DNA of 64,000 nt, from assembly GCA_032718475.1 (NCBI GenBank), contig JAUCBJ010009161.1, forward strand, positions 1-64,000. Direction: 5' to 3'. Positions 27,544-64,000 of this stretch are shown here, one piece after another. The notes below the pieces were generated by a model. It saw only the letters and a list, made by a program, of their open reading frames with translations, did no database searches and was not told where the DNA came from. The DNA comes from Nemertoderma westbladi (taxonomy: Eukaryota; Animalia; Xenacoelomorpha). Made by a program: the position numbers and the translations under genes. Each line of letters starts with the position of its first letter. Positions within the stretch are counted from its first letter, which is position 1.

Positions 27544-29584
27544 TTAGTCCTTCTTACGTGAATGGCATTTACGAAGTTTTTTGAGGCTAGCAAGAGTCAT
27601 TTTCTCTTTGGGGCGAGCCACTTTACTAGGAGGGCTATAACTCCTGGGTGAGGGGTGCAATACAATTGCATCGGAAGGTTTAGGGTTATGGTCGGTGTAT
27701 CCGCCGGTCGAGGTACCCGGTTGATCGATATCAACCTCAGTGGAACAAGGTCGAACAACCTTTAGAGCGCGTTTCAAGACAGCAGCTCTTACTGGTCCCT
27801 GACGGGTCGTTTGCACGAGAGTGGTAGGTTGACCGTGAGTAGTGAGAAATTTCCTCGGTTTGATGGTTATTTCCAACTCGCGTTCTCTGGCTTTATATTC
27901 ATATGGTTGTCTATGAACTTCTTGTAACTCTGGATGCGAGTTTATGAACAAGTCACCGCGTGATTTATCAATGTTAGAAACTTTAAACTGTATGTAAGAT
28001 CTTCCGGTTTCACCATATAATATTGAGTTAAATTGACATAATAAGGGTGGTCTTTGATCCCATAAAATGAGTTCGGTAAAGGTCTAGCGCGTAGGTTGAC
28101 CTCGTGTACCATATGACGGACAAGATCCGCTCTATTGTCCGGAGGTTTAACGAGTATACCGTCGACACGAGTGGCCTCGATTGGCGGACGTTGTAACATA
28201 GGAGCGTCAGCGATAAGATCTCTAGATCTTAGGTTGATATCAACCGGATGGGGCTGTACCATGGCGAAGAGTTTGTCTCCGAAATGGGGAACCATGTAAG
28301 GATGAAAAATGGTTTTGGAATAGAGATCGGTCATAAGGATTTCAGCTTCTGGCTGGGCTAAAGCTGCTTCTTCTCTCTCGTCCATTTCGATATGCTTCTC
28401 CTCAAGCTGATTTTCCTCCGCTGGTCGTGGGAAGCGTTCGTCCAAAAACTCTTGCAGAGAGTAGATTCGTCCAAGTTCGATGTCTTCCTCGAGATTCTGG
28501 ATTTCCCGATCAAACTGGGGTAAAGCTAATTCTTTTACCGCTTGGACTTGCCGCTGCAATTTACATTTATCTAAACAATCGTAAGTTCCTTTTCCAATCT
28601 TTTGTCGAATAGCGTCTACCGCGTTTCGTACAACGCTCTCCTCCACCTCGGTGACAGGTTGTATCGGGGTTAGACAGGGACGATTATACGGGTTGAACGG
28701 CGATATGAGGTGTCCGCGTCCCAATCCGGCTAGGTAAGATGGGCGAATATCTAGGGAGCCCACAACCGGAGTGCCACCGACTAATTGTTCGGGTAACACT
28801 AGATCTTTGAACAGTGAGTACAGTTCGGGAGGATCCGTGATACTATTAGGATCAAGAGTCTGAGGTCTCACCAGGGAATGAGGAGGTCTGACCGAGTATT
28901 CCGGAACTCTGATCATCGGTTTATTTAAGGATCGTTTGAGTCGAGCGAGCGTAGGTGATACGTCGAACAAGTTTCGCTCGAAACACCCGTAAGAATAGCG
29001 AGTAAAACTGTGTTTAGCGCAACGTCTCCGCGTATGTTTATGTCTTTCTGTTTGTTGGTTGGGTCTAGGGCATTCATCGTAATAATACCATAGACGCATG
29101 TCTTGTAGAGGAAACGCGGGTGATCTTTCTCCAGTTTTACAATGTTTCTCTCAAGAATTCCAAATATACGTTGAAGTCACTGCGTTTATCCGGTTCTTCA
29201 ACATCTTCTCTTTCGAGTCGATTTCGAATAGAATTTTTCGTGTTCGATTCTCAGTTTATCGTTCCGACTCTGCTGGGTATGATATTTAAATAGGATCATT
29301 TCCCTTTCGGTGTCTACATCGTCCGTATCATGTAAATCGATAGGATGACCAGTAGTTAAGAAGTCCATATACGTACCATTACGATGCGTATAGCGAGCGG
29401 TGAATTTTCTATAGTCCAATTCACGCTTGAGTTGTTCCTTTGACATTGGCGGTTCGATATAACGGCCATCGTCCTCCGTAGTGGGTTGACTAGCGTCGCC
29501 GTGTATTAAACTATCAACAAACGCTTGCAAGGGTAGGGTATATCGCTCCCTGATACCAAGATTATCCTCTATCAACTCAGTCAT
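27544..29584 (-). pseudogene. ORF3 of element B (internally deleted homolog of 57970-62223)
   Basis: ORFs 29198-29584, 27942-29099 and 27544-27951 align with aa ~1-145, ~203-597 and ~1280-1417 of the 1417-aa ORF. The exonuclease and zinc-finger part is missing. Confidence 0.92.
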
Positions 29585-31305: not shown

Positions 31306-34300
31306 TTACGTTGGGGAGTCCCTAGATGTTTGTTGGTTTAGGGAGGTGGTCGTGGGAAGAGTATCTTGCCTTCCATAGTTTCCGGATAGCTCTCTGTCTC
31401 TTTCCAGTAAACATAAACGACCAATTGGGCGATTGAGTTGCTGTGTTTCGAATACAATTCCAGGTTTCTTAAAGTTACGTCGCATGACGACGAGTTCTAC
31501 CGATCGCACTAAACCATCATCGGATATATGAGTCTCGATGATACGACCTGTCTGCCACCGCTTACGTGGAAGATCTGATTCCACAATAAGGACCATGTCT
31601 CCGGCACTGACGTTTTCTTGCTGAGCAAACCACTTGATTCGAAGTTGTAGCGTAGGCAGATAATGTTTTTCGAAATGGTCAGTGAAACGACTGGATAATA
31701 ACTGCATGAGTTGCCAAGTTTGTTGGCAGTATTCGTCTCCATCTGTGATTTCCGATTGTGGGAGCATGGCTACAGGTTTCTTCAGTAAGAAATGCGCGGG
31801 TGTTAGCGCTTCTAGGGAGTCGGGACTCGATGAGACTAGCATAAGCGGTCTCTCGTTAAGATAGGCGGCGATTTCTTCCATTAACGTCCGCAAAAGTTCG
31901 TCGGTGAGATACACGCGGCAAGGCACTATAAAGTGAAATGCGGTCTTCACGCTCCTTATTAATCTCTCCCAACTTCCTCCCCACCAAGGGGCGTCGGCGG
32001 CGTTGAAGGTCCAGCTAGATGCTGTTACCCTTAGCTGATCGTCCACCTGTCTTTGGTTCCAATCTTTAACGTAAGCTTTGATCTCATTATTGGCGCCAAT
32101 GAAGTTCGTTCCCTTATCAGATCTCATCGTGTTGCTAGTTCCAAATCGGGCGATCTGCCGGCGTAAACTCAGTATGAAGCTGTTGGTAGATAGATCGTTC
32201 ACCATATCTAGATGGATCACTCTACAAGTCATACAGACAAAGATGACACACCATCGCTTGACTATAGTCCTAGCACGATATACTTCAATAGGGCCAAATA
32301 AATCCACACCGGTATTAGTAAAGGGTGGTTCATAGAAGCTTACTCGTTCCCTAGGTAATTCTGCCTCTCGCTGTGTTAAAGGCCTACAGGGTATACAGTT
32401 CCTAAGAACTTGGTTCAGAGCTCTACAGGGTTTATGGAAATAATAGTGAGTTCGAATTTCGCTCAGAACTCGTTCTCTACCAGCATGGTAAAGCCTACTG
32501 TGAACATCTACAATCATCTTGATTTGTATTTCAAGATTTCTAATGAGTATGGGAAATTTAGTGTCAAAGGACAATGGAGCATTAGTTAGTCTCCCTCCAA
32601 CACGTATTAACCCATCTATCATTGTGCTAGAGAAACGATCCCTTAAGCGCATCTGTGGATTTCTCAACAACAGGAAATACTTATCGGAATCTTCATAGCA
32701 TTGCAGGAGTCTCAGTATCTGTTTATTGGTTTCTTCATGCTCCTGGTAACTGATCTTCTCCGTCAGAAACCTATCCGACACTTTGTATTTGGGAAGATCT
32801 TTAATAGCATGGACCTACTCGGATGTCGGTGGAGCGGTATCACTAGCGATCTTCGTCCTGGAGTAGTGATGATGGAAGCATCGCTTCAAATACATGACGG
32901 CCTTACAAAGCCGGTTCCAGGAGCTATAGTGATTTATCGCTCTCTGCAGGAGAGGTGAGAGTCCCTGCGAGACGTCTGGTGTTCCAGATTTCCAGTCTCT
33001 ATCTCTGATTTCTACAACAGATTTGTTTGTGGTGGAGGAGTTTAGATCCACAGCGTCGTCCCCGGAGATATGTAAGACAGACAGATCTATCACAGGTTTA
33101 AATAACTTTAATTTACTTGTCCAGGTTTTGGGTTTGACTTTCCCCGCTCCCTTGGCTTGTCTAATCTCAGCCATAGTGAGATGAGGAGGCCATTCATCCT
33201 CTTCTTTACTTAGGAAGTCGGGTCCACCTAACCAGTCTGGAGTATCTATCAGTTCTTGAGGAGTTGCTCCTCTGGAGGCGATGTCGGCTGGATTAATCAT
33301 CCCAGGGCAATGTCTCCATTGATCTACATTATTGCGACTAAGTATAATGGCTACTCTGTTGGTAACAAAGACGCTGAACTGACAGACTTCATTGGTTATA
33401 TACTCCAAAACGAGTAAAGCATCAGTCCAATAGACAGTTTTCTCCAGTGGATAGTCGATCTGTTCTGTTACATTCCGGCCAATGGCTGTAGCATATAGAG
33501 CCGCCTTTAACTCCGCTCGAGGAACTCGTAGTTTGTTGTTTATCAAGGCCTTAGAGGTGACCAAGGCAACTTTAATTCCGTCCGGAGTTTCAACCCTCAG
33601 GTAAGCTACTATACCTATTCCCATATCGCTGGCGTCTCCAAACACATGGAGTTGATAGGAATACGTGGGGAGAACGTCACCAAAATATGAACGGGAAATC
33701 GTAAAGTTCTCGATGGATGGTAGAGAATCTTCCCATTTCATCCACTTCTTTAGTAGTTCGCCCTTAAGTGGATCATCCCACGAGTGGTTTTCAAGCCACA
33801 TTTGTTGCACTAAGCTCCGAGCAACCAATATAACTGGGGTAATAAATCCCAATGGATCGAAATAAGTGCTTAGGATACTTAGACAAATCCGTTTGGTTCG
33901 AACTGGATTATCTTGCTGTTTTAGCTGGAAAAACAATATATCTCTCTCTGTGTCCCATTTTAAACCAAGCGTCTTGGTTTCCGGAAGATCGTCCTTGATA
34001 AGGTCCAGATCTTTAACACCTCAGTCTTCTACCGGGATCGATTCCAGAAACTCACGGGAGTTACTAGTGAATTTGGTTAGTCGAAATCCACTGCGTTTCA
34101 AGCACTCTACCGTTCCTTTGGCAACATCAATGGCTTCTTCCGCCGATGGGAGGGACTTTAAATTGTCGTCCATGTATATATCCCGTTTGATGTTGTCGAT
34201 AACTGCTTTAGAGAAGGCGTCTCGGTTGTCATCAGCAGTGGTACGCACTACTGAACAAGCGTTCGAGGGGCTCGAGATGATCCCGAAAGCCTGGATGGTC

Positions 34301-35827
34301 ACCCAGTACTCCACCGGTTTTTGGTTGAGGTCTCCTTCAGGCCACCACAGAAATCGTAGGCTGTCTCGATCCCTATACAGGACCTATCCTTGACTTGTAA
34401 GAACATGCCTTCTATATCCGAAGCGAAAGCGATAGAATATTGCCGTAATCTTAATAGTATTCCCAACAAGGATTGGAGTAAGTTGGGTCCCAGCAACAAT
34501 TCGGAGTTCAGGGATTGGCCCATGTAAAGGGCGGAGCCGTCGAACACTATCCGGACTTCGTTGGGTTTACCGGGTTTGGGAACGTAATGATGTGTTAGAT
34601 AATACGTTCTCTCTGTGATGGGTGTTTCTTCCAGTACTCGCTCCGCGTATCCCTTATCGATAAATTTCTTCAGCTGGGTCTTATACATCTCTTTAGCTGA
34701 AGCATTGGCCGTAAGACGCCGATGTAGTTGCGCGATTCTCTTCTCCGCTAAGGGTCGGTTATTTATAAAGTTGGGTTCTCGCCGTCGGAATGGAAGACCA
34801 ATCTCATAGCGACCGTGATCTTTAAGAAAACGGGTAGTCATTTCCTGAATCTGTTTGGCTCTCTCCTCCTCGACAGACAAGGCCTTGTCGTAGGAGGAAT
34901 TGGGCTCTACGGCTTCTTGAGTAAAGAATCGTACAGCGTGTTCATCGCAAATCTTATTGCTATATCGATCTATCACCTCGTTTAATTTATCGTTGTAGTC
35001 GAATTGTCCGCCATGGTTGATGAGATGGCACAGGTTTACTTGGTTTCGCCAAGTTTCATTTTCGGCGAGGAGGTCGATTGTATTTTCCTCGTCGAATAAT
35101 TGGTTAATATCGTCATTATCTGAGGAGTATGGGGTTCCCTCAGTTGTGGTTTCTCCTTCACTAATACTTCTTCCCATTCACTCACTTGATGTATCTTTTC
35201 TGGAGGAAGTCTTTCTATCAGTGTTCTACGGGAAGGTCCAGTGAAATACCAACCTACTCTCGTTCTTCCCGCATATGTTTATAATGGTTGCGGTCGAGCA
35301 GGCCGTTTTTCTAATGTCTCTAGCACCTCGTGCGCATTTTGGCCGATCAGTATCTGTACCCCTGGGTAGTCGGTGTTGAATCTAGGGATATCATGCTGCT
35401 GGGTAAAATGGTCTTCATCCCAGTTGTAAGGTTCCACTTGGATGGTAGCAAAGTTCTTTATCGCCACCATTTTTACTGACCTTATGCTATATTCTCCTAG
35501 TTCATCCTGGGGAGTGGACAACGCGCCTACATAATAATCTGTAGCTACTGTGGATTTCCAAACCTGCATAATTCCTGAAAGGTTCAACTTAGTTCGGAAC
35601 TTGGGTTGTCCAGCAAAGATGTCTTCGGCTAGCTCTTTGTCGATGAATGTACCTGTGCTACCGGAGTCAAGGAGGGCGTTTACTATAAAACTCTTACCTG
35701 GCCCGTGGACTCTCAGCTGCACTACTGGGAATTCCCGAATTCCGACGTTGGAAGTTGGCGCTTTCCAAGATGGTTGCGGAATAGTCGGTTGCGCTTCGTT
35801 ATCGGTTTCAGTCTCATACGTAAGCGC
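31306..35827 (-). pseudogene. pol: Element B pol (protease LLDSGS, RT YMDD, RNase H FGDAS, integrase HHCC + DDE), disrupted
   Basis: ORFs 35279-35722, 34299-35177, 34021-34314, 32815-33936 and 31306-32781 (GVDLFGP, SDKGTNF, APWWGGSWERLIRSVK) are separated by stops and frameshifts. Confidence 0.93.
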
Positions 35828-48200: not shown

Positions 48201-48271
48201 GTTGGAATAGGTGTTCTTCTAATCGCTCTAAAGAACTGAAGAATCCCTGGACATATCCTGCTGCCAACCTC
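45202..48271 (-). pseudogene. gag: Element B gag (3' part), duplicated copy
   Basis: Identical to 35828-38897. Confidence 0.92.
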
Positions 48272-49507
48272 TGTAAAAGCTTCTGTGGGATATAACTGGC
48301 CCCTTTTGCTTCGCAATCCAGTTTCCCCCCAGGCGCTGGAATACTCTAAAAGGGTTCTCTAACTGTATATATATTCCCCTCGCCCGCAAGGTACCGTTAC
48401 AGGTGTTTTAACGGACATAAAAGTCATTCTTCTATATACATGTTTTGGCGGACATGGTAAGGCAAAAAACCTGCAATGCACCAAATACCTTACACAGCTT
48501 AGCCTTGATGATTCATATTACGACATCTAACAGCTGGTTGCTGACATGGGAACAGCCATTGGACGCATGGTTCTTTGTTTGGCTTGAGCCAATCAGAGCG
48601 ATTTTTTCTGTCGACGTGTAGATATTTGGTCGATCATACTAGGAGTGTTCTGTCTTACTGTTTTTTCTTGATACTTTGTTGTTGCTATCTAGGCCAGGAA
48701 CACCGGCTCTAGAGTCAATTCATTTTCATACTTTAGAAGAAACATTAGTAGGCTTAAGATTATAGAGCGTATAACTGTTATCTTGTCACATCTTGTCATA
48801 TCATATCTTAACCTACCGTCTTAATGTTGTTTACTGTTGTGTTTTGGTTGAATATTATTTGGAGAACATATATAAAGAACCCAAATTTCCCAATTTTCTT
48901 GATACACTACAGGTTAGAGAGACGGGATATATATAGCGATTGCGACTTATATTATTGTGGTTTGTAGTGAATTTAATGCTATTTGATAAGCCCTACATGA
49001 GTCAATTGCTGCTCTCTTTATATATGATAAAATTCATTGACGGTCGGCAAATTAGTGAGAAGTATTGTGTGTTACCGGTAGTGTGCCTGATTGTGACTGA
49101 TAACTAAGCATTTCCTAAAGAATGCGCCTCATACGTGAATCATAAGCCTTACCGACTTACCGTTGTGATTAGTATAAGTCATATCTCTGTTTACCTAGAT
49201 AGAGCGCCACGTCCTAAAGGAACTGTTAATATTTACCGAAAGTAAATAATATTAGTCAGAAATTAATTATTAACGATCAATCGAATAATACAATACAGTA
49301 AGCTTACACTACAATAATAATCTAAGCCCTCAGAATCCAGTCTCCCGGGTATATCCAGCGGGTGAATGGACGCGCACTAGGCTGGCTTCTGCTAATGTTG
49401 TGTTTATTGGTATTAAATATTTGTCATCTTCTAAAGTCTATTTATAAACCAAAAGACATATAAATTTTGGCAGGTTAAACTGCTAAAGGTCTTCAAAAGC
49501 GCATACA
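48272..49507 (+). repeat. 5' LTR of element C
   Basis: TGTAAAAGC...GCATACA; about 7 substitutions versus the 3' LTR by eye. Confidence 0.95.
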
Positions 49508-51744
49508 ATAACAGTTATTGACTTTATTGCAGTAAGCAATAAAGTTGAAAGTACCGGTCGACCGGTAAACCTGAACCGGTACTTCTGTAGGTCAGTAGGC
49601 CCAACTGCCAGAACCGGTACTGCCGTAGGTCCATAGGTCCAACTGCCAGAACCGGTACTTCTGTAGGTCTGTAGGCCCAACTGTCCTAACCGGTACTTCC
49701 AGTACAAGTACATTAGTATTATTCGATTTTGATTATTGTATACCGGTAGGTCTTAGTATTTAATCAGGGACTGCAGCCCTGGTTCTTTATTGAGATTTTA
49801 CTTATTTCTGTCGGTTTTATTTACATGTAAGTTAATATTGAGCTGAAGACGTGTAAGTCTGCTCAGATTGTTCAGATAATTGTAGGCCGGACTGTTGTTA
49901 GATTGTTGTTGAGATTGGAGAGATTACGGCATGTGTAGAGTTTGTCCGATAGAGTGCCAGTTAGTAAGTTGGGGCAGCCATAGCTGTAAGGTCAATCCCC
50001 TCTTAAAGAATAAGTCGTACTACCGTGTTAGAACGCATATTAACTAACCATTTTGGAATCTGCACATACTGTAGTTTATTTAGGCTTGACAGTATTCTGC
50101 CAGCGTTTTGGCCTGTGTTTGTTTGTGTGGTCTGTTCAGGTACCGTAATAGTTATTACTCAGATATTTTGTAGGCTGGATTGTTGTCTAGCTATTATTAG
50201 GTCTGAAGAGATTGCTGCGTGTGTAGAGTTTGTCCGATAGAGTGCCAGTTAGTAAGTTGGGGCAGCCATAGCTGTAAGGTCAATCCCCTCTTAAAGAATA
50301 AGTCGTACTACCGTGTTAGAACGCATACTAACTAACCATTTTGGAATCTACACATACTGTAGTTTATTTAGGCTTGGTGGTAGTCTGCCAGCGTTTGGTT
50401 TGTATTTTGTTTGAATATTCTGTACGGGTAGCGTAATATTTATTATTCAGAGTTTATGCGATTATTCGCAACATTCATGTCCCCAAGTTTATTCCTACAG
50501 TAATTGTGTTTGTTACACATACCGTTATAGTTAAATTAACCCTGGTACTACACGGGCTGCTTGGCGTAGGAAAAGACTGGTGACTTTGTGCTTCGGTCAC
50601 TCCAGCAGATGCCGTGGTTCTTTTAACTGTTCAAGTATATTTAACTACTGAATATTTGTTGTACCAGTACTTGTACCTAATTTAGGGTTTAGTGTACAGT
50701 GCTTTCCGAAGTAATTAGTGTGTAGGCAGTATATTTGTGTTGTAAAGTGGTTAATAGGCACGTTGGATCTGGTAGTCCGCGGTAATTAACTTCTAGGTAG
50801 GAACACTCCGTGATACATAACGTAGTACCTATAGCGATACGGTTATAGGTCGTCAGGCGGTGGTATTTTCCTATCTGGACAGTGCAATATATTTACTACT
50901 ACTTATTATTTTCAAATACCGTAGTATCCTGTCTGTTGTAATAACCAGAAGTTCTAACCCTTTGTTAGACTGGTTTGTAGACTTCCTGTAAAATTACCCT
51001 AAAAATTCGTACGTAATATTTTCGTTGTGTTTAATTAGAGATTTAATCTCACCCGTATCGTAAGTAATTTGTAGTATTAAGTAACTTAGGTAAATTAGAA
51101 TAATCTGTTTTAGTGTCCCATAAGTAGCACTCCACTGAGGGCGCACAGCTTCTGTGTAGTGACTCTCCCCAGAAATAATAACATTTATTTCAAATATTGA
51201 CAAAACCCCCTTTTAAACGGGTATATATCTATTATAAATCAACTCGAACGATTTATAAATAGTAGGCCTGCCATACAACAACTAGGTCTCAATATCAGTT
51301 GGACTACTGCTTAAATAACGGTAATAAAGTAAGTTAAAGTAATCAAGTAACCCTAAAATATTCAGAAATTCAATTATTCTAAAATAATTGACATACCGGT
51401 ATTTACCATAGGCTTATTATATTTATTTCTATAAATTTGAGCTAAAATCATACCGGTATTCTGTAATTAATTCTAGTTCATAATTATACTTATATATACT
51501 ATAAGTGTAAGCTGTATACCGGTATTCACGATAGGCCTATTATATATTTATATATATTTGTGCTAAATTTATATACCGGTACTCTGTGACAAACTAGTTT
51601 ACAATACTTATATATATTATAAGTGCATACCGGTATTCTAATATACTGCAATAAATTACTGGTACTAGGCCAACGGTCATACTGAATTACTAGACTTGCT
51701 TTAACTGTAACTATAGCAGTAAGCATTCAACTGTATAGCTAAAC
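49508..51744 (+). other. 2.2-kb 5' leader of element C with internal repeats
   Basis: ~36-bp tandem units at 49550-49700; ~170-bp direct repeat at ~49932-50105 / 50221-50395; recurrent ataccggta motif at 51390-51640. Confidence 0.8.
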
Positions 51745-54700
51745 ATGTCTGACACTCAGCAAAACCTGTCAGACAGTCTAATCGATACAACCATCTGTGA
51801 CACAGATAGGAGTGTGGAGCGATTAAGAAAGGAGTTCAGCTCACCTCCTACTGAAAGAAAAGTCATCCCTCCAGTAGTGGTATCGGACCCTAAGCTAATC
51901 CAACACCGTAGGTCTATCATCGGCACTCGGGCCCAAGTCAAACGGAACCAGGAAGCAGCTGTCCCACAGCAGCAACAGCCTAGTCAAGAAACTTATTCCC
52001 AGCGATCCGATAGCTCCAGTAGTTCGGATACTGTCGAGCTGACCCCCGAACGCGGATTGCGGATGGCGGCTAAAGCCTACTCGGACCCCCTTCTCACCCT
52101 TCCTGCCGCAGTGCTAACTACTATATTGATTGCGGTGGAGGAATATCAAGCCGATTGGGCGAGAAGTAAACGAGCGACCCAAGATAATTATGCGGGATAC
52201 GCCAGGGAAGAATTGATGTCGATTGTCGAGTCACAATGGAACTTTCCCAGACCCGGACTCCCGTTAGATTTGTCCGAAGCTACTTGGGAAGATATACACA
52301 GGATGGGAGTGACTAAAGATACAATGGATCCAGCTGTTTGGAAGAGGTCGGCAGCAGGATATGTGCAGGGATTCTTCGGCTCCTTGGAGCGATTAGAAGA
52401 ACAACTGTTTCGACAACCCCAAGGACCTCAAGAGCAGGAAGAACTGCTATATCAAGTACGCGAAAGAACCCTACGCATTCGACTAATCCTATCAGCCTTT
52501 GAGGAAACTTCCAAAAGAAGACAGGACACGTCGCTGCAAGTTGCTGTCGAAACTTGGTTCCAGCGGGTAGGTCGCAAAGTACAAGAAACGGACCAGTGGA
52601 AATCCCAGCTGTCTGAGAGACTAACCTATGAAGAACCAACCGATGCCACCCTTCCTCAAGTGGAAGGCGAAGAGACCGCAGAGAGACCACGAACGAGAGA
52701 CGCCATAGACATTTATCTGTCCGACTATCAGCGATTCCTAGGAGACGAAGAGTTGAGGAGACGGCTGTCTGGACTTTCCCCTAATAGTGAAGGAACCCAA
52801 CGTGTGTTAGACTCAATCGATGCTGAAATGTTAGCTGCTAACCAAGCAGAATTTGATGAAAAACTCCGCCTCCCTAGAGTCCAAGAAGAACAAGTAAAGA
52901 AAAGACGGATAGAGGAACAAAAGGCGGCGGCTATGGCAGAAGCAGAAGTAGAAAGAAAGGCAGCGGCGGCAGAAGCAGAAGCAGAAAGAAAGGCAGCGGC
53001 GGCAGAAGCAGAAGCAGAAAGAAAAGCAGCAAAGGCAGTGGCAGAAGCAGAACGGAGAGCCTCTGAGCAGACTACCCAACTGGAGTTGGAAAATCTGCAA
53101 GAGACGCAAGACAACATAAATAAACAGTTAACTGCTATTCAAATGCAGATGATGAGACGATCTACTCCCAAACGCCAGGGATACACATCATCGGAGGAAA
53201 GCGAAACCACCGATCCTGAAGGCGGAGGAAATAGATCTCGTCTAAGCAGGCGTAGAAAAACATCTCACCGTCACAAATTGCCTGATTTGCCCCCAGCTGT
53301 TAGAAGACAGCTAGCTAGCACAGACTTAGGTAGTACGGAACTCGCATACCAAACTATTCAGGTCAAAAGACTCCCTACAATAGTTGATGAGCCTGAAATA
53401 ATTAGGCCTGTCGTTCCCAAAGTCACTTCTGTGTTAGAGACCCCTGTACTTCCAGAGCTTAACTCTAAATTCCCTTTACACAGTACTACACTGCCTGTAC
53501 CCGGTAGAACAGTCCAAGAGAATATCCCTGTCCTGATAGCAGAGAGAGAAATCAAAGATTTGTCTCCTGTCGTCCCACGTCAGCCCGCTACAATGTTGGC
53601 GACTCCCGTTTCGGCGGTCGAGTGGGTAGAAGAGGGACAGCGGGGGATGAATCTCCTGCTCGGACAGATGCAGGAGACTGTCCACCAACTTAAGGGAACC
53701 GTAAGGGAAGGTAGGGCAGAATTGCAAGAAGTGCAGCAAAGTATCGCGCTAGAATGCGACAAATTAGTCAATATCCAAAAGGGGATACCAATACCCCCTG
53801 TAAAATTGTGTCAACCTGTTAGGTCTGAAGTATTACATGCGCAAGGTGTGGAGCCTACACGCATCTATACTGCTAGTGAAGTAGAAACTCCTATAGCAAA
53901 CCCTATTAAGGGTGATTATAGACCTGTTATTAACGATATCCCCTATAGACCTGACAATGACCCGAGAAATTTATATACTGATAATTCGATATTAAATAAC
54001 ACGATGGCCCAAGAAAGCTTTACGCGTCAGATGGCTAGAACAGAAGCCCGCCAAGCGGTCAAAGTGGGAGAGATCGTCAAATTCAATGGAGATGAGATGA
54101 AATGGTTACCTTTCAACGAATATTACAAAGATAGCATACAAAACTCTGTACTATCTAACGGAGAGAAACTTAGGTTCCTCATCAAGTGCTTGGAAGGACC
54201 TCCCAGGTTAATGGCGTTAAAGTTTGTTGGACATCCAGAAGGATTAAGACAGGTATGGGATACATTAAACATCAGGTATGGTAACAAGGATAACATAGCT
54301 AAGTATTTGTATGCAAAATTAGTAGCCCCCCGACACTTCCTTAGTAGCGGGATTATAGAGTTTTCCGATGAAATTCAGGAGATCTGTAGACAATTGGACT
54401 GGTTAGGTAAGTCTCATGAATATCAGAGTTCAATGGTTATTGGAGCCGTAGTCTCTACTTTACCAAAGGGTGGAGTATGTACACGCTGGGACAAGAAAGT
54501 GTTGTACATAAATGAACAACAACGACGAAGTCCTACCATGGCTGATCTCATGTCCTTCTTAGATGGTGAAGTAAAACTACAACTCATCAAGCAGTCCAGA
54601 GAGAAAACATCGGAAAATAAGGTAAGTGAGAAACCCGCTTCTAGGAGAAGAGTAACACCGGTGTGTTACACTGACGACGGCGAAAGCCAAGCTTCTCAAG

Positions 54701-55122
54701 AAGAGGACAGCGGGAAAGACACTGAGAGATCTTACTACGTTGAAAAAACCTCAAAAGATGTAAGTAAATACAAGGCTCGAAACAACGATATGAGAGAACA
54801 GGTTGCCAAGACCCCTCCTCAGTCTCCTAAGAGAATTCACGGAAGAAAGCCCGAAGAAAGAACGAGAGTGCATAACGTTACCCAAGGTAAGGTGAGTAAC
54901 ATCAAACCAAAATGTGCGCTGTGCGATGGGCCCCACCGTTTGAGTGCGTGTGCTGAATTTCTAAAGAAATCCCTTGTAGACAGACGTACAGTCCTGTGGA
55001 ATAAGCGGTTATGCTATAATTGCCTCAGATCAGGACACCAACGGCGAACCTGTTACTCCGACGTAAAGTGTGCAAAGTGTGGCGCGAAACATCACATCTT
55101 GTTACACAGTGAGTTCGAATGA
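51745..55122 (+). CDS. gag: Gag of element C (1125 aa, intact)
   Basis: Uninterrupted ORF with an EAEAERKAA coiled coil, Bel gag core and three C-terminal zinc knuckles. It ends at a TGA where B has AGA. Confidence 0.92.
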   Translation: MSDTQQNLSDSLIDTTICDTDRSVERLRKEFSSPPTERKVIPPVVVSDPKLIQHRRSIIGTRAQVKRNQEAAVPQQQQPSQETYSQRSDSSSSSDTVELTPERGLRMAAKAYSDPLLTLPAAVLTTILIAVEEYQADWARSKRATQDNYAGYAREELMSIVESQWNFPRPGLPLDLSEATWEDIHRMGVTKDTMDPAVWKRSAAGYVQGFFGSLERLEEQLFRQPQGPQEQEELLYQVRERTLRIRLILSAFEETSKRRQDTSLQVAVETWFQRVGRKVQETDQWKSQLSERLTYEEPTDATLPQVEGEETAERPRTRDAIDIYLSDYQRFLGDEELRRRLSGLSPNSEGTQRVLDSIDAEMLAANQAEFDEKLRLPRVQEEQVKKRRIEEQKAAAMAEAEVERKAAAAEAEAERKAAAAEAEAERKAAKAVAEAERRASEQTTQLELENLQETQDNINKQLTAIQMQMMRRSTPKRQGYTSSEESETTDPEGGGNRSRLSRRRKTSHRHKLPDLPPAVRRQLASTDLGSTELAYQTIQVKRLPTIVDEPEIIRPVVPKVTSVLETPVLPELNSKFPLHSTTLPVPGRTVQENIPVLIAEREIKDLSPVVPRQPATMLATPVSAVEWVEEGQRGMNLLLGQMQETVHQLKGTVREGRAELQEVQQSIALECDKLVNIQKGIPIPPVKLCQPVRSEVLHAQGVEPTRIYTASEVETPIANPIKGDYRPVINDIPYRPDNDPRNLYTDNSILNNTMAQESFTRQMARTEARQAVKVGEIVKFNGDEMKWLPFNEYYKDSIQNSVLSNGEKLRFLIKCLEGPPRLMALKFVGHPEGLRQVWDTLNIRYGNKDNIAKYLYAKLVAPRHFLSSGIIEFSDEIQEICRQLDWLGKSHEYQSSMVIGAVVSTLPKGGVCTRWDKKVLYINEQQRRSPTMADLMSFLDGEVKLQLIKQSREKTSENKVSEKPASRRRVTPVCYTDDGESQASQEEDSGKDTERSYYVEKTSKDVSKYKARNNDMREQVAKTPPQSPKRIHGRKPEERTRVHNVTQGKVSNIKPKCALCDGPHRLSACAEFLKKSLVDRRTVLWNKRLCYNCLRSGHQRRTCYSDVKCAKCGAKHHILLHSEFE

Positions 55123-56347
55123 AACAACCCGAGTCAGGTAAGTGAGCCCGAACTACATGTCCAATTCAGTGATGTAAATGACACTGATCAAGAATCTGAG
55201 ATGGAAGGATTCTATACTAACGAATTCTCCGACGCCAACGAATCCTGTTACTTAATAAATACCGCAGTGTATCGAGCACTTACGCATGAAAAGGACACCG
55301 ACAATGAGTTCCCCCCAACTACCTTTGACAGACAACCATCTTGGAAAGCTCCAACTTCCAACGTAGAAATCAGAGAATTTCCTGTAGTGCAGGTAAGAGT
55401 TCACGGTCCTAACAAAAGTTACATAGTGAACGCCCTCCTTGACTCCGGCAGCATAGGAACATTCATCGATCAAGAACTAGCCGAAGATATCTTTGCTGGA
55501 CAACCCAAATTCCGGACTAAATTGAACATGTCAGGAATTATGCAGGTTTGGAAATCTACCCTAACGGCAGATTACTATGTAGGTGTGTTGTCCACCCCCC
55601 AGGATAAATTAGGAGCACAAGGTATAAGGTCGGTAAAAATGGTGGCTATAAAGAACTTCGCTACTACTCAAGCAGACCTTTATAATTGGGACGAGGATGA
55701 GAGCATTCAACATCTTAAGATACCTCGATTCCAGACAGATTATCCTGGAGTGCAAATACTCATCGGCCAAAACGCGCATGAGGCGCTCGAGACATTGGAG
55801 AAACGGCCTGCTCAACCACAGCCACTACAAACCTATGCGGTAAGAACTAGAGTAGGTTGGTACTTCACTGGCCCTTCCCGTAGAACTCTCAAAGAGAGAT
55901 TACCTCAACAACAGGTATACCAAGTAAAGGAATGGGAAAATGGAGAGCAGTGAGGTGGACGAACTAGCTGAGGGAACACCATACTCCTCAGATAATGACG
56001 ATATTAACTCCAATGTAGATCAATGGAGACATTGCCTTGGGACGATTAATCCAGCCGACATCGCTTCCAGAGGAGCAACTCCTCAAGAACTGATAGATAC
56101 TCCAGGCTGGTTAGGTGGATCCGACTCCTTAAGTAAAGAAGAAGAAGAATGGCCTCCTCATCTTACCACGGCGGAGCGTAGACAGGCCAAGGGAGCGGAG
56201 AAAGTAACACAACAACTCAATCGCCCAACTAGTCGTTTATGTTTACTGGAACGAGACCGAAAACTGTCCGGAAACTACGGAAGGCAAGATACTCTTCCTA
56301 CGACCACTTCCCTAATCCGACAAATATCTAGGGACTCCATAACGTAA
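55123..56347 (+). pseudogene. pol: Element C pol remnant: protease plus short RNase H and integrase-tail pieces
   Basis: LLDSGS protease, then SSDNDDIN|SNVDQWRHC (RT and most of RNase H deleted, ~56008) and GAEKV|TQQLNRP (integrase deleted, ~56206) relative to B. Confidence 0.92.
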
Positions 56348-57969
56348 TAACATATGGAGTGGGCGTGTGACTATATCATTTTATATTTGTTTTTATTTTA
56401 TATTTATGTATGTATTATTATGTAATTTTATTATAATCGTTTTCTTTAATTTTATTTAGTAGAATGTCATTTTAGTGATTATTTAGTAGATTAGTGCAAT
56501 ATATTATTGTTTATTACGTACGTAATTACTTATAATATATTTAGTGTGACGGCGAGAAATAATTATTTTTCTCTTTCCTTACTGTCCGTATCATATTATA
56601 AATACGTGACTACAGTAAGATGAAATGTCCGTACTTCTTAAAGTACAATAAAGCCACTACTATATTCAAGTATTATTGGTAGGCAGAGTATTAGGAATGC
56701 AAAGTTCAGATCCTCGAGTCTCGGCTAAACCAAGCTCTGGGTAGACCTTGGAAACGACTTGCCTCTTCACACTGACATTGCTTCGTGCGATATTGCTCTT
56801 CTACCTTATATTAAATAATACATATAATAGTGTGATGTCCCTCTAACAGTAGCGTAAAACGCAAATAAATCTGTTAAACTTTTTGACCATCTGTAATTCT
56901 AGTCGATTAAGATATCGCGGCACCCACCGATATACTTGAAAGACAAATTCTAGAATCAGTGGTTAACGTCCCCAGACAAGTTCTGGAATAAATCGGTGCC
57001 CATCTTAAATATTAATTTAATATTTATTAAAATCTGTAAAATTCAGATCCGTTAACAATTCTAGTTGATTAAGATATCGTAGCACTTACCGATACTCTTA
57101 AAAGACAAATTTCATAGAATTAAGGATCCTATGTCCCCAGACCTGCTCTGGAATCAAATTGTGTCAATTTTAACATCAAATAATAAAATTCACGGGAATA
57201 AATTTAAATTCATATTTTAAATGAATTTCATAAATTGTCATTTTGTACAATTTATAACATTCCCAAAATTCCATTAATTAATAGATCATGGGAGCGGAGA
57301 TTCATCCTATTGAGTGTATTAGAGTGCGAGAATCTCCAACATATAGTCAATAGCCGATAAAATTAATAAAATCATGCATAAAGAGGATATTGACAATTAA
57401 AGAATTATTATTAAATAGCATCCCAGATCTGTATGCATGAGAATTAACCTAATTCTACCGCTAGCATTCCATAATGTCACCATAGCAACACCCACGCCAG
57501 AATTAGAAGCAAGTTAAAAGAACAATAGAAGGCTTGCCCCATTGCATAGCATAGAATATAGCACACTGCTAGTATCCAAGGATACACAGTAATAACGTGA
57601 CATTCTGGAAGGCACTGACTAACGGACAAATGGCCTGTATGTGTGCAGTTGGTGACAGTTGTGTGGAATTTGTGCGTTTATAGGTGAATGTTACTGCTAA
57701 AGTATGTTTACAGTAGCTAGTCGCAATTGTAAAGGTAGCCCAACTCTCCTATAGAAAGAACCTAAGTGGATCCAAGCCTTTGGGACAGACAGTGGAGTGA
57801 CTTGTGCCGGTTATCATTGTCGTGCTGTTGCTACATGTTGGCGTAAACACCGCGACGACGGTACATCGGCGCTGAGAATCCCACTGTCCGGGGGCAAAGA
57901 GAAGTAGGCAGTGACGCCCGCTCGCCTAAATATAAACTTATTTGATATTAATAAACTCAGATAGCAGAT
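56348..57969 (+). promoter_or_regulatory. Conserved non-coding spacer between pol and ORF3
   Basis: Colinear and highly similar to 29585-31305 (reverse complement). Contains an internal ~120-bp duplication (~56895-57005 / 57057-57165) and a GC-rich segment just before the ATG. Confidence 0.6.
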
Positions 57970-60900
57970 ATGACGGAGTTGATAGAAGATGATCTTGGTA
58001 TTAGGGAGCGATATACTCTACCTTTACAAGCATTTGTGGATAGCTTAATACGCGGTGAAGCCGATCCAACCATTACGGAGGACGATGGTCGTTATATCGA
58101 ACCGCTGATGTCCCAAGAGCAACTTGCGCATGAATTGGACTATCGAAAATTCACCACTCGCTATACGAATCGCAATGGTACATATATGGACTTCTTAACT
58201 ACCGGCCATTCTATCGATTTGCATGATACGGACGATGTAGATACAGAGAGGGAAATGGTTCTATTTAAATATCATACCCAGCGGAGTTGTAACGATAAAC
58301 CGAGAATAGATCACGAAAATTTTATTCGTAATCGACTGGAAAGAGAAAACGTTGAAGAACCGGATAAACGCATCGACTTCAACGAATACCTAGAATTTTT
58401 GAGAGAAACCTATCTCAACATCGCCAGTCAGCAGAACTTAGAGACTCGATATCCTCAAGGTATACATCACGACCCTGTGGTAGAACTTAAACGGCTCTAT
58501 TTCACTATGATATATCTTACCGCCGATCGTCCACTACCTGTTATCCCGGATAGTTTTGAACAAATGGAAGAATACTGCAAAACTGGAGAACGATCACCCG
58601 CGTTTCCTCTACAGGACGTACGTCTTTGGTATTATTGTGACGAATGCCCTAGACCTAACCAACAAACTGAAAGACATAAACATCCGCGGAGACGTTGCGC
58701 TAAACATAGTTTTACGCGTTACACTTACGGGAGTTTCGAGCGAAACCTGTTCGACATACCACCCATGATCGCTCGTCTTAAACGATCACTGAATAAACCC
58801 ATGATCAGAGTTCCGGAATACTCGGTCAGGCCTCCTCATTCCCTAGTGAGACCTCAAACTCTTGATCCTAACAGTATCACTGATCCTCCCGAACTATATT
58901 CCCTGTTCAAAGACTTAGTGTTACCCGAACAATTAGTCGGTGGTGCTCCGGTAGTGGGTTCGTTAGACATCCGCCCATCCTACTTAGCCGGATTGGGACG
59001 CGGGCAGCTAATATCGCCCTTTGATCCTTACAATCGTCCAGGATTAAACCCGATGCAACCCGCCACGGAAGTCGAGGAGAGCGTTATAAGAAACGCTTTA
59101 GACGCCATTCGACAGAAAATCGGAAAGGGAACACAAGATTGTTTAGAGAAACGTAAATTACAACAACAAGTCCAATCGGTGAAGGAGTTAGCCTTGCCAC
59201 AGTTCGATAGGGAAATCCAAAACCTCGAGGAAGACATAGAGCTTGGACGCACGTATTCTCTACAAGAATTTTTAGATGAACGCTTACAGAGACAAGCGGA
59301 AGAAATTCTACTCGAGGAGAAACACACGAAACTGGAAGAGAGAGAAGAAGCCGCTTTAGCCCAACCGGAAGCTCAAATCCTCATGACGGACCTCTACTCT
59401 AAAACCGTTCGTCATCCCTCGATGATTCCACATTTCGGGGACAAGCTCTTCGCGACGATACAACCTCAACCGGTTGATATCAGTACAGGATCGCAAAATC
59501 TTATCGCTGACGCCCCTATGTTACAGCGTCCGCCGATCGAGGCCGCTCGTGTTGACGGTATACTCGTTGAACCTCCGGATAATCGAGCGGATCTTGTCCG
59601 TCGTATGGTACACGATGTCAACATACGCGCTAGACCTTTACAGAACTCGTTTTATGGGATTAAAGACCACCCTTATTACGTTAATCTGACTCAATATTAT
59701 ATGATAAAACCTGAAGACCCGACACATAATTTAAAGTTTCTACCACTAATAAATCCTCTAGACATTGTCGAACTCGAACAATTGCAGAAACATCTGGATC
59801 AGTTAGTAAAGGTAAACTCATTTAGAAAACCATATAACATTTCTCGAATCGAGAAAGATATAGAACCTCCTTATAATCTCGATGGATTTATTAAAACTCG
59901 ATTAGTCCATTGGAATCTAGATGTATTATTTGAAGAAGAGAAAATACAAAGATATGGAAATGTGGAGACGTATACCACTCGGCACATGAAGTATAGTGAT
60001 CTCCCTGACGCTAACCAATGCGCCACCTTGTGGCATCCAGTAGGGATGACCCTAGAGAACGCCACCAAGGAGTGGAATGAAACTCTTAATGTTATTGAGA
60101 TGTATGGAGTTGTCACCTACGATAATGAAGGTAGCGTTCCGGTCGGAGAACTAGGAACTACGCGCATGATTCACATACGTGGATTAGCTGGTTCTACCCA
60201 CGTGTTTACTCGAGCGTGTTCCGACGTGATTGATTATTCCTTTGAAACTCTCACCGAAACACAAAAGAATCTCCGACATGGACAATTCGAACTCGCGCAG
60301 CGTTACGTCATTGACACCGAACGCAAACCGGCCATGGGCATCGATGGATCGATGTTACCCCAGCCCGTACTCGAGATGTTGTTCAACGAAAGAATCCTTA
60401 AAATCGGCTCAGCTGTTTATGGAGATCTCCAAAACGACTTTCGGAATATGGAGAACATTCCATACCCTTTCGTTGATACTCAGCTGATTGCTCCCTGGGC
60501 AGAAGGTCGAGGTTTCTTCCGCACTATGTATGCTAATACGCCTAGCAACATTACCAAGGTGCAACGAACTTCCATCGGACATCTTGCCTTTCAGGAATAC
60601 GGATGGAATTTCAAAGTCGGAAATCCCATTAACTATCAACAAGTATACGGAGACCATTATTCTCGATTATACTTTGATGGACCATTGACCGCACCTGGCG
60701 CCGTGTATAGCTTCATGAGTGTTCCACTCCGTCCCTCCTTAGCTATATACACGATCTATGAAAACACCGCACTTGCCGGTTGGCTAGCCGATGTGTGCAG
60801 TCGTACTATACGCGCCCATCCATTAATACTTGGGACCAAACTCGCTAAGCTAGATGAACATAATAAATTCATCCGTTTCGAATGTTTCCGGCGATTTTTA

Positions 60901-62223
60901 ACCCCGTTCCGCAACGTGGATAGCCAATTTAAAGACCGCGCTTTGACCAAGCTCAGCCTAAGAGACTCAGCTGCAGAGAAGTTGGATAGCGCTGGATTCG
61001 CCGTTTTCCAAGAGATTTGTATATCAAACTTACACTCCTCTGTTATACAAAGACCTCGAATCCCCACAGGTTATTCTGTCGTGGAAATTCAGACAATAGG
61101 TCCACCTGAAGAGACAGACGCGCCCACTTCAGCTATGCACTTGGAAGACGAACCAATATGTCTAGAATCTGAAGAGATTCAGCCTATCGCGCCCCGGACC
61201 AGCGACAACGATTACATCATAGAATGGTATCAAGGTCCACAGTGTCTCACTGCGTACGATTATCGACATGCCAACTATGTTTCTAGGCAACGTTGTCGGT
61301 TATGCGCATCGAGAGACCACGATACGCCCATGGACACCAACGTCCGCTGTTCCTATTTCCAAGAACAACCGACTATGGAAATTTATTGCGCATATTGCAG
61401 ACTCAATAACTTGCATATTTTTGCGGTTTGCCCTCAATTTATGACTCAATGTCACCATTGTCAACTAAAGGGACATGCCAGTTTCGATTGCCCTTTTAAT
61501 CACGATTTGGAAAGCGTAGATGAAATGATCACACTACGTTACATCAGAGCTTGGGAAGCGAACGCTGATTTACATTGTGATTCGCGCCATCGCTATTATC
61601 CCGGACGCGCTTACGAAGGAGTTTATGCGTTCCATCCTTATCTATTCGCTTCGGTTGAACAGAAATCACGCATATCAAGTTACGAGCTACTGAAGCGCGT
61701 TGGAGAATGTATTTCAACCAAATTCGTACGCAAATTTCTCAGGAGTGTTAATCCTAGCGACCTTCATTCCTATAACTTAATCAATTATATCCGTCAGGAT
61801 CCGGACTATGGAGACTTGTTTGTTAACTCACACCCCGAGTTACAGGAAGTATATCGACGGCCTTACGAATACCGAGCCCGCGAACGCGAGTTGGAAAGGA
61901 CCATTAAACCCCGGAGGTTTCTAATTGCTTATGGTCCACCCACGGCCCTCGTTCAGACCACTCGTAAAGGACCCGTAAGAGCGGCTGTCTTGAAACGAGC
62001 TCTCAAAGCCGTTAGACCCCTCTCCCCTGACGTTGATGTCAATCAACCCGGTACTTCGACTGGCGGATACACCGACCATAATCCTACACCCTCTGATGCA
62101 ATCATATTGCACCCTTCACCCAGGAGTTATAGCCCTCCTTGTAAAGTGGCTCGCCCCAAAGAGAAAAAGACTCTGGCTAGCTTTAAGAAACTGCGTAAAC
62201 GCCGTCCGCGCAAGAAAGACTAA
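57970..62223 (+). CDS. Retrotransposon-borne ORF3, 1417 aa: putative DEDDy 3'-5' exonuclease domain, CCHC zinc fingers and basic C-terminal tail
   Basis: Intact ORF with a homolog in element B. Motifs: VVTYDNEG (ExoI), LPQPVLEMLFNERILKIGSAVYGD (ExoII), FVDTQ, SIGHLA, PLRPSLAIYTIYE (ExoIII-like); C-x2-C-x4-H-x4-C knuckle CHHCQLKGHASFDC; KKLRKRRPRKKD tail. Confidence 0.85.
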   Translation: MTELIEDDLGIRERYTLPLQAFVDSLIRGEADPTITEDDGRYIEPLMSQEQLAHELDYRKFTTRYTNRNGTYMDFLTTGHSIDLHDTDDVDTEREMVLFKYHTQRSCNDKPRIDHENFIRNRLERENVEEPDKRIDFNEYLEFLRETYLNIASQQNLETRYPQGIHHDPVVELKRLYFTMIYLTADRPLPVIPDSFEQMEEYCKTGERSPAFPLQDVRLWYYCDECPRPNQQTERHKHPRRRCAKHSFTRYTYGSFERNLFDIPPMIARLKRSLNKPMIRVPEYSVRPPHSLVRPQTLDPNSITDPPELYSLFKDLVLPEQLVGGAPVVGSLDIRPSYLAGLGRGQLISPFDPYNRPGLNPMQPATEVEESVIRNALDAIRQKIGKGTQDCLEKRKLQQQVQSVKELALPQFDREIQNLEEDIELGRTYSLQEFLDERLQRQAEEILLEEKHTKLEEREEAALAQPEAQILMTDLYSKTVRHPSMIPHFGDKLFATIQPQPVDISTGSQNLIADAPMLQRPPIEAARVDGILVEPPDNRADLVRRMVHDVNIRARPLQNSFYGIKDHPYYVNLTQYYMIKPEDPTHNLKFLPLINPLDIVELEQLQKHLDQLVKVNSFRKPYNISRIEKDIEPPYNLDGFIKTRLVHWNLDVLFEEEKIQRYGNVETYTTRHMKYSDLPDANQCATLWHPVGMTLENATKEWNETLNVIEMYGVVTYDNEGSVPVGELGTTRMIHIRGLAGSTHVFTRACSDVIDYSFETLTETQKNLRHGQFELAQRYVIDTERKPAMGIDGSMLPQPVLEMLFNERILKIGSAVYGDLQNDFRNMENIPYPFVDTQLIAPWAEGRGFFRTMYANTPSNITKVQRTSIGHLAFQEYGWNFKVGNPINYQQVYGDHYSRLYFDGPLTAPGAVYSFMSVPLRPSLAIYTIYENTALAGWLADVCSRTIRAHPLILGTKLAKLDEHNKFIRFECFRRFLTPFRNVDSQFKDRALTKLSLRDSAAEKLDSAGFAVFQEICISNLHSSVIQRPRIPTGYSVVEIQTIGPPEETDAPTSAMHLEDEPICLESEEIQPIAPRTSDNDYIIEWYQGPQCLTAYDYRHANYVSRQRCRLCASRDHDTPMDTNVRCSYFQEQPTMEIYCAYCRLNNLHIFAVCPQFMTQCHHCQLKGHASFDCPFNHDLESVDEMITLRYIRAWEANADLHCDSRHRYYPGRAYEGVYAFHPYLFASVEQKSRISSYELLKRVGECISTKFVRKFLRSVNPSDLHSYNLINYIRQDPDYGDLFVNSHPELQEVYRRPYEYRARERELERTIKPRRFLIAYGPPTALVQTTRKGPVRAAVLKRALKAVRPLSPDVDVNQPGTSTGGYTDHNPTPSDAIILHPSPRSYSPPCKVARPKEKKTLASFKKLRKRRPRKKD

Positions 62224-62301
62224 CTGTTTAGAGTATTTACGTATATTAGAAACTGTGATTTTGTATATTTTATAGACTAAAATCCCATTTTCTGGGAGCG
62301 G

Positions 62302-63537
62302 TGTAAAAGCTTCTGTGGGATATAACTGGCCCCTTTTGCTTCGCAATCCAGTTTCCCCCCAGGCGCTGGAATACTCTAAAAGGGTTCTCTAACTGTATAT
62401 ATATTCCCCTCGCCCGCAAGGTACCGTTACAGGTGTTTTAACGGACATAAAAGTCATTCTTCTATATACGTGTTTTGGCGGACATGGTAAGGCAAAAAAC
62501 CTGCAATGCACCAAATACCTTACACAGCTTAGCCTTGATGATTCATATTACGACATCTAACAGCTGGTTGCTGACATGGGAACAGCCATTGGACGCATGG
62601 TTCTTTGTTTGGCTTGAGCCAATCAGAGCGATTTTTTCTGTCGACGTGTAGATATTTGGTCGATCATACTAGGAGTGTTCTGTCTTACTGTTTTTTCTTG
62701 ATACTTTGTTGTTGCTATCTAGGCCAGGAACACCGGCTCTAGAGTCAATTCATTTTCATACTTTTGAAGAAACATTAGTAGGCTTAAGATTATAGAGCGT
62801 ATAACTGTTATCTTGTCACATCTTGTCATATCATATCTTAACCTACCGTCTTAATGTTGTTTACTGTTGTGTTTTGGTTGAATATTATTTGGAGAACATA
62901 TATAAAGAACCCAAATTTCCCAATTTTCTTGATACACTACAGGTTAGAGAGACGGGATATATATAGCGATTGCGACTTATATTATTGTGGTTTGTAGTGA
63001 ATTTAATGCTATTTGATAAGCCCTACATGAGTCAATTGCTGCTCTCTTTATATATGATAAAATTCATTGATGGTCGGCAAATTAGTGAGAAGTATTGTGT
63101 GTTACCGGTAGTGTGCCTGATTGTGACTGATAACTAAGCATTTCCTAAAGAATGCGCCTCATACGTGAATCATAAGCCTTACCGACTTACCGTTGTGATT
63201 AGTATAAGTCATATCTCTGTTTACCTAGATAGAGCGCCACGTCCTAAAGGAACTGTTAATATTTACCGAAAGTAAATAATATTAGTCAGAAATTAATTAT
63301 TAACGATCAATCGAATAATACAATACAGTAAGCTTACACTGCAATAATAATCTAAGCCCTCAGAATCCAGTCTCCAGGGTATATCCAGCGGGTGAATGGA
63401 CGCGCACTAGGCTGGCTTCTGCTAATGTTGTGTTTATTGGTATTAAATATTTGTCATCTTCTAAAGTCTATTTATAAACCAAAAGACATATACATTTTGG
63501 CAGGTTAAACTGCTAAAGGTCTTCAAAAGCGCGTACA
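62302..63537 (+). repeat. 3' LTR of element C
   Basis: TGTAAAAGC...GCGTACA, preceded by the short purine-rich tract gggagcgg and followed by the ACCTC TSD. Confidence 0.95.
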
Positions 63538-64000
63538 ACCTCTTCCACACAGCTGGATCTCGAGTGTCTCTTACTACTCCCATCCTGTATAAGTCCTCCC
63601 AGGCAGCTTCCGATAAGTTAAACGGGAGTCCGGATCCAGGGAAGTTCCATTGCGTCTCGACAATAGACTTCAGTTCCTCCATCGTGTATCCCGCATAACT
63701 GTCTCTGGTCGATCGCTTACCTATCGCCCAATCGATTTGATGTTCTTCCACCGCGATCAATACTCTAGTGAGTACGGCTCCAGGAAGAATTAGAAGTGGA
63801 TCTGGATAAACCGCTTCTGTCATCTTTGCTCCGATCTTGGGTGTCAACTCTACAGTGTCTGAACTACTGGAGTTATCGGGCCGCTGAGAAATAAGTTCCC
63901 GGTTCGGGTGCTGCTGCTGTTTAACAACTGCCTCTTGGTCCCGCTTGACTTGAGCCCTAGTGCCTATGATAGACCTATAGTTCTTTACTAGCCTAGGGTC
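63538..64000 (-). pseudogene. gag: Element B gag 5' part
   Basis: YPDPLLILPGAVLTRVLIAVEEHQIDWA...RDPAVWKR aligns with aa ~50-200 of the C gag. Confidence 0.9.

Follow-up and report, generated by a model that had tools for sequence, protein, structure and literature searches.

Our study showed that the third gene of a Bel/Pao long terminal repeat (LTR) retrotransposon in the genome of Nemertoderma westbladi is not of the envelope type, but is a large, intact and selectively constrained accessory gene lying in the env slot, with a very probable RNase D-like domain. This gene (third open reading frame, ORF3) belongs to element A, one of two related and oppositely oriented elements in the window, i.e. 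the whole stretch of 64,000 nt that was analysed (positions 1 to 64,000 of contig JAUCBJ010009161.1, assembly GCA_032718475.1, forward strand); the other, element B, is the one into whose gag element A has inserted. Our tentative overall reading is that ORF3 is a conserved Bel/Pao accessory gene encoding a likely RNA-binding 3'-5' exoribonuclease of the RNase D type, which would blunt the small-RNA silencing of the host in trans. The features on which this reading is built are the following.

57970..62223, plus strand: ORF3, 1417 amino acids (aa), no internal stop
60082..60804, plus strand: predicted DEDDy/RNase D-like 3'-5' exonuclease domain, aa ~705-945
60121-3 (D718), 60127-9 (E720), 60424-6 (D819), 60748-50 (Y927) and 60760-2 (E931), plus strand: predicted catalytic codons
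61294..61491, plus strand: three Cys/His zinc-knuckle motifs, aa 1109-1174, the third a canonical CX2CX4HX4C
62167..62220, plus strand: basic C-terminal tail that may be a nuclear localisation signal and is for the most part kept in element B
27544..29584, minus strand: broken ORF3 homolog of element B, in the pol/3' LTR interval, matching aa 1-150, 200-595 and 1277-1417

An initial annotation, made from the sequence alone, had described an intact sense ORF of 1417 aa and a non-env third gene lacking a signal peptide and transmembrane segments, and our analysis agrees on each point. Neither a signal peptide nor a membrane segment is apparent in ORF3, given a highest 19-residue Kyte-Doolittle mean of 1.19 and an acidic N-terminus, and a Pfam scan gave no match to an envelope-glycoprotein family. 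The annotation had also placed ORF3 between pol and the 3' LTR; the gene does lie just before this LTR (78 nt from its stop codon), but most of pol is gone from element A. It also mentioned zinc fingers; the three knuckles listed above match zf-CCHC_3 at E=0.0066, below the cut-off, and align with those of a distant homolog, P0001, described below.

The assignment of residues ~705-945 to the RNase D/DEDDy type, proposed in the initial annotation and borne out by four sequence or profile tests together with P0001, is in our view highly probable. In an unguided scan of NCBIfam, 2 of 18,950 models matched aa 691-950, both of them RNase D models and both far below their cut-offs (TIGR01388, E=0.0027; PRK10829, E=0.02). 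Among the ESM Atlas matches to the domain, 25 of 30 fell in the PF01612 set (score 0.92), and BLASTP with Escherichia coli RNase D placed D819 on D85 (E=0.003). With a home-built profile of 51 fetched PF01612 domains, ORF3 reached 11.3 bits and P0001 17.1 bits, compared to 5.4 and 3.8 for the best of 500 shuffles, respectively, and hhalign gave a probability of 93% for the ORF3 domain versus at most 0.7% in 40 column shuffles. The five motifs quoted in the annotation are found at the residues it gave, with D718, E720, D819, Y927 and E931 correctly numbered. In a multiple alignment, D718 and E720 are each matched by the same residue in 50 of the 51 references and D819 in all 51; the DxE of Exo I (D718/E720) falls on D28/E30 of RNase D, where an insertion of ~30-40 residues in ORF3 affects the placement, and the Asp of Exo II on D85. 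The YxxxD of Exo III is replaced by YxxxE, as the annotation had noted, and P0001 has the same variant site; Y229/E233 of P0001 align with Y151/D155 of RNase D, and Exo III of ORF3 is placed through P0001. The profile evidence favours a DnaQ/RNase H-like fold for the domain.

P0001, the sole relative of ORF3 among 1.84 billion representatives (E=1.8e-6), is a protein of 648 aa encoded on a 9.4-kb ENA contig. It shows 29% identity to the exonuclease region of ORF3 (pairwise E=1e-13), resembles it also in the knuckle region (E=4e-4) and has the same D-E-D-Y-E set of site residues (D62/E64/D130/Y229/E233). The occurrence of the final Glu in both ORF3 and so distant a protein indicates that it did not arise through decay of this copy of ORF3. 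The layout is also the same, with the exonuclease followed by three CCHC-type knuckles, a short conserved segment and a basic tail, and in a search of solved structures the P0001 knuckles matched the nucleocapsid protein of HIV (E=1e-4) and, weakly, Air2 (0.064). The top Atlas match of P0001 (0.86), a cluster of Euglenozoa, carries both PF01612 and PF00098, which we consider as a lead.

Other searches gave no further relatives. Word-based protein searches with aa 650-1250 and aa 691-1010 of ORF3 returned no homologs and a profile of ORF3 plus P0001 recovered P0001 only; there was no match to ORF3 in metagenome contigs, and none of the viral contigs contained relatives of ORF3, P0001 or the element B integrase. 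A tblastn search of phages gave only matches at E of about 10, PHROGs nothing useful, and searches of solved structures with the ORF3 exonuclease region chance matches only, with no direct match to TbRND, the trypanosome mitochondrial RNase D. A profile scan of metagenome contigs yielded a single locus, with a 25-residue match to a WRN/EXD-like exonuclease ORF on a fungal-looking metagenome contig (L114:7754-8866), which served purely as a reference domain; it adjoins a Cys-rich ORF and is possibly part of a DNA transposon. Subfamily profiles did not assign the domain: the highest score for ORF3, 13.5 bits compared to 4.0 for the top shuffle, was obtained with long RNase D, where P0001 reached only 5.2, and the WRN-like set gave -0.3 for ORF3 and 3.1 for P0001.

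The annotation had regarded ORF3 as a family trait on the basis of a homolog in element B. A homolog is indeed found in the same slot, but aa 596-1276, comprising the exonuclease and the knuckles, are deleted from it; element B therefore supports ORF3, but not the exonuclease, as a family trait. Between A and B, the ratio of nonsynonymous to synonymous divergence (dN/dS) in the three pieces of ORF3 is 0.145, 0.095 and 0.120 at dS 0.57-0.99, compared to 0.18-0.19 in gag (dS 0.64-1.05) and 0.12 in the protease region (dS 0.94). ORF3 is under purifying selection, as old and as constrained as the core genes, and the similar values in the three genes fit their co-inheritance since the A/B split. 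Support for the exonuclease in other copies, which element B cannot provide as it lacks the domain, comes from variants in X1, the single public run, perhaps of RNA, that contains the element family (share of words 0.23; 30 of 30 bins of 48000-64000 covered). Twelve X1 contigs, 80-100% identical and free of insertions or deletions, cover 60060-60800. We classed their differences one by one, the contigs being too short for linkage to pol: 32 of the 40 variants listed (103 in total) are synonymous, versus 23% expected (p=2e-14), and none of these 40 touches any of the four predicted acidic codons. The N-terminal 690 aa of ORF3 (57970-60050) match no family, yet their dN/dS is near 0.1; this half contains a charged stretch, helical in character, near aa 425-460 and a cluster of Cys and His residues (aa 223-247), the first Cys of which is altered in element B.

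These data bear directly on the idea that ORF3 is a recently transduced host gene travelling as a useless passenger. The middle part of ORF3 is missing not only from element B but also from two single X1 contigs, which speaks for this idea. The gene, however, occupies the same slot in two elements with saturating synonymous divergence, its dN/dS near 0.1 is like that of gag and protease, it has no introns, and neither the word-based searches nor the scan of 1.84 billion representatives revealed a close cellular homolog. We thus give the passenger explanation hardly any credence.

Several observations weigh against the exonuclease reading. Pfam, a check that the annotation itself had proposed, gives no exonuclease match in ORF3 and one of E=0.2 only in P0001. 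The AlphaFold2 models are poor (predicted local distance difference test, pLDDT, 31 and 34), and significant local matches are confined to ~45-65 residues in the Exo II region. Exo III of ORF3 does not align with the references in the 53-row alignment, nor in the global hhalign comparison. Linkage to a retroelement rests on one family, P0001 having been compared at the protein level; X1 is a single run with short contigs, maybe from the same or a sister species, and one of these contigs alters Y930, a residue other than the predicted catalytic Tyr. The blank in Pfam, the low pLDDT values and the shortness of the local matches would all be accounted for if the motifs matched by chance and ORF3 had another fold. 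We consider this very improbable, since the unguided NCBIfam scan yields RNase D and nothing else, the shuffles are clearly beaten, and the predicted catalytic residues are those that ORF3 has in common with P0001.

The variant Exo III also bears on whether the domain cuts at all. It is conceivable, but on the unlikely side, that ORF3 is a pseudo-nuclease that binds RNA without cutting it, serving as scaffold or decoy in the PIWI-interacting RNA (piRNA) pathway or in the particle, like EXD1 and Maelstrom. The Asp of Exo III is replaced by Glu in both ORF3 and P0001, the domain of ORF3 carries insertions, and an EXD1-like cluster comes second among the Atlas matches of P0001 (0.77, only a lead); in addition, inactive mouse EXD1 (AELE) has Glu as its fourth acid, a further point against our reading (PMC4712191; this source and PMC4600332, PMC5408684, PMC3706591, PMC7797062, PMC6338049 and PMC13524379 are cited from the portions of their text that were available). 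EXD1, however, has lost several acids (SDLN, AELE; PMC4712191), whereas ORF3 and P0001, at 29% identity, keep D, E, D and Y and have an acidic fourth residue. Given the retention of three acids and the Tyr, the acidic fourth residue and the greater losses in inactive EXD1, we favour a working enzyme, and think it probable that the ORF3 exonuclease is catalytically active. The D501E change in Klenow is reported to leave much of the activity in place.

The role of such an enzyme has to be considered in the context of the element that carries it, whose organisation is as follows.

48267..48271, plus strand: 5' target-site duplication ACCTC, at the insertion point in gag of element B
48272..63537, plus strand: element A, Bel/Pao retrotransposon, 15.3 kb, with LTRs of 1236 nt
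48272..49507, plus strand: 5' LTR, TG...CA, 1236 nt
49508..49518, plus strand: position of the primer-binding site, 11 nt complementary to LTR 48771-48781, a lead only
51745..55122, plus strand: gag, 1125 aa, with DUF1759 and three C-terminal Cys/His knuckles
55123..55953, plus strand: protease region, Asp_protease_2 at E=0.075, below the cut-off
56012..56350, plus strand: remnants of the RNase H region and integrase end, ~340 nt, 91% and 88% identical to pieces of element B pol
57776..57895, plus strand: long predicted hairpin upstream of ORF3, kept in element B, z -4.8, a candidate control element and a lead only
62294..62301, plus strand: purine-rich tract preceding the 3' LTR, identical in element B
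62302..63537, plus strand: 3' LTR, pair to the 5' LTR
63538..63542, plus strand: 3' target-site duplication, the same ACCTC
31306..35827, minus strand: pol of element B, in pieces, in the order protease, reverse transcriptase (YMDD), RNase H, integrase

The LTRs of element A differ at 7 of 1233 compared positions (99.4% identity) which, together with the ACCTC at both ends of the element, which the annotation had described as bounded by target-site duplications, points to a recent insertion. Element A belongs to Bel/Pao by its LTRs, its target-site duplication and the DUF1759 of its gag (Pfam, E=1.2e-12) and, through its sister element B, by Peptidase_A17 (E=1.5e-24), DUF5641 (E=2.7e-20), the YMDD motif and the domain order of pol; the gag and protease regions of the two are 77-80% identical. 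In element A, a stop codon divides the gag frame from the protease region, after which pol is cut off by a deletion, and the pol remnants are followed by a 1.6-kb spacer and then ORF3. With most of pol deleted, element A is non-autonomous.

Element A lacks the 18-nt primer site for tRNA-Arg or tRNA-Gly that is a feature of the Belpaoviridae, and no TGG-type tRNA primer site was found within 49508-49700 (193 nt after the 5' LTR); this is a departure from the family, and not a reason to place element A outside Bel/Pao. The 11 nt complementary to the LTR suggest possible self-priming of the kind seen in Tf1/Tj1 (PMC4600332). The leader of element A (49508-51744), with 2.2 kb of untranslated sequence, is long for Bel/Pao and contains internal repeats (49872-50163 and 50159-50451, 87% identity). 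We know of no case of self-priming in Bel/Pao. There were no Rfam matches across 48000-64000 and no tRNA genes in the window.

It is because element A seems to lack a tRNA primer site that a need for the exonuclease in its own replication can be proposed, in which an active enzyme would trim the primer, the 3' end of the RNA or the ends of the cDNA. Such a role would fit the LTR complement, which is reached by 16 of 5000 shuffled LTRs, and the resemblance of the knuckles to nucleocapsid; a function in 3'-end processing has also been proposed by Rodriguez et al. (PMC5408684) and in a paper on Dada transposons (PMC3706591). The 11-mer is, however, nearly palindromic, its complementarity was spotted post hoc and it is not conserved, with mismatches at 3 of 11 positions in the LTR of element B, an element whose primer site falls beyond the window. 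Bel/Pao elements, moreover, carry one to three genes, meaning that a third gene is not generally required, and we consider the replication role unlikely.

We lean instead, as a guess, towards an anti-silencing role for the ORF3 exonuclease, with host silencing RNAs as its target, as the third gene is optional in the family and its middle part is lost in some copies; loss of the domain in element B would fit an action of ORF3 in trans. In the mechanism that we propose from what is known of related families, notably TbRND, the three knuckles would bind single-stranded RNA and guide it, 3' end first, to a two-metal site made up of D718, E720, D819 and E931 plus Y927. As guesses, the enzyme might act on guide RNAs or on the precursors of these, and a host or Gag partner might be bound by the long N-terminal half. 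Host EXD1, Mut-7, Nibbler and WRN belong to the same exonuclease class, which has links to small-RNA pathways or transposons, and show no close sequence match to ORF3. In a wider and rather unlikely version, ORF3 and P0001 would represent an old retroelement-borne 'exonuclease plus knuckle' family, equivalent in a single chain to Rrp6 together with Air2, or to TbRND, and its working DEDE site would destroy the piRNA or small interfering RNA guides of the host or, more boldly still, trim primers in a self-priming Bel/Pao lineage.

The region between pol and ORF3 may have a different history from its surroundings. The pol remnants and spacer of element A (56012-57800) are ~90% identical to element B (29750-33330, minus strand), with differences in the pol remnants spread evenly over codon positions, and gag, ORF3 and the LTRs are far more diverged, which suggests that element A is a recombinant. 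We rejected the 91% identity of the spacer as a sign of constraint, since the adjoining pol remnants are just as similar to element B, whatever the codon position, pointing to a recombined patch. The hairpin in this spacer has 3 two-sided changes in 51 pairs relative to element B, a level matched by 55 of 500 shuffles and, with two sequences, not significant; a second strongly folding stretch (56850-57000, z -4.4) lies within a short direct repeat. A YAG is found 2 nt 5' of the ORF3 ATG in both elements and there are strong donors within gag/protease, from which ORF3 may be spliced, as a candidate only. Elsewhere, a direct duplication of 8893 nt with one mismatch (31222-40114 and 40596-49488) includes element B pol, a portion of gag and the greater part of the element A 5' LTR, and may reflect either misassembly or a tandem duplication of very recent date. 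The window also contains a protease and reverse transcriptase pair at 3727-5599 (Asp_protease_2, weak RVT_1), a more distant Bel/Pao gag fragment at 25056-25327 and a homogeneous 15-nt tandem array at ~18000-19300.

DEDDy domains have been met before in mobile elements. In bdelloid rotifers, the Juno and Vesta LTR elements and the Athena/Terminons carry a DEDDy ORF3 with a DEED motif, for which a role in 3'-end processing or silencing, the two possibilities also raised in the initial annotation, was proposed, its activity being unproven (Rodriguez, Kenefick and Arkhipova, 2017, PMC5408684). Like the ORF3 described here, those of Juno and Vesta are non-env, RNase D-like and membrane-free, lie in the pol/3' LTR interval and have one catalytic Asp replaced by Glu. 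By description, which is how the two were compared, they differ in that Juno and Vesta are not Bel/Pao and have DEED, whereas our ORF3 is Bel/Pao and has DEDE; three C-terminal knuckles and a size of 1417 aa are not described for them in the available text. Some Dada DNA transposons contain a DEDDy domain within their DDE transposase, which keeps DEDD (PMC3706591), and a later paper calls such exonuclease domains well known (PMC6338049). TbRND resembles ORF3, by analogy only, in that its DEDDy exonuclease precedes a series of CCHC knuckles, which bind RNA and raise cleavage, and its Exo I mutants are dead; unlike ORF3, it is a cellular protein of less than 400 aa, has four knuckles and the canonical acids, and trims the U tails of guide RNAs (PMC7797062).

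For the Belpaoviridae, the profile of the International Committee on Taxonomy of Viruses mentions only env-like third genes, in genomes of 4.2-10 kb with one to three genes (PMC8742986). ORF3 has the same slot and orientation as these env-like genes (PMC8742986; PMC13524379), but lacks a signal peptide, a membrane anchor and any match to a glycoprotein, and element A measures 15.3 kb even though most of its pol is gone. Our literature search, outside of which lay Repbase Reports, most subscription journals and supplements, found no report of a Bel/Pao exonuclease, and the word 'exonuclease' does not occur in PMC3118150 or in the available text of PMC13524379. The suggestion in the initial annotation that this architecture was undescribed thus stands for Bel/Pao but not for LTR elements at large, whose DEDDy ORF3s have been in print since 2017 (PMC5408684). 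What is new here is the Bel/Pao host, the large size, the knuckles and the DEDE site; the concept of a DEDDy ORF3 is not.

Bel/Pao third genes have been treated as envelopes, and our findings indicate that their slot can instead hold a large, strongly selected gene for a predicted nucleic-acid enzyme. With them, the capture of exonucleases described in rotifer elements would also reach a second superfamily of LTR elements, a recurrence suggesting that such an activity is needed repeatedly. The Glu shared in the last motif raises the question of activity at DEDE sites, and the existence of anti-piRNA enzymes in animal retrotransposons becomes a testable idea with a natural gene that is intact and whose predicted active site is defined.

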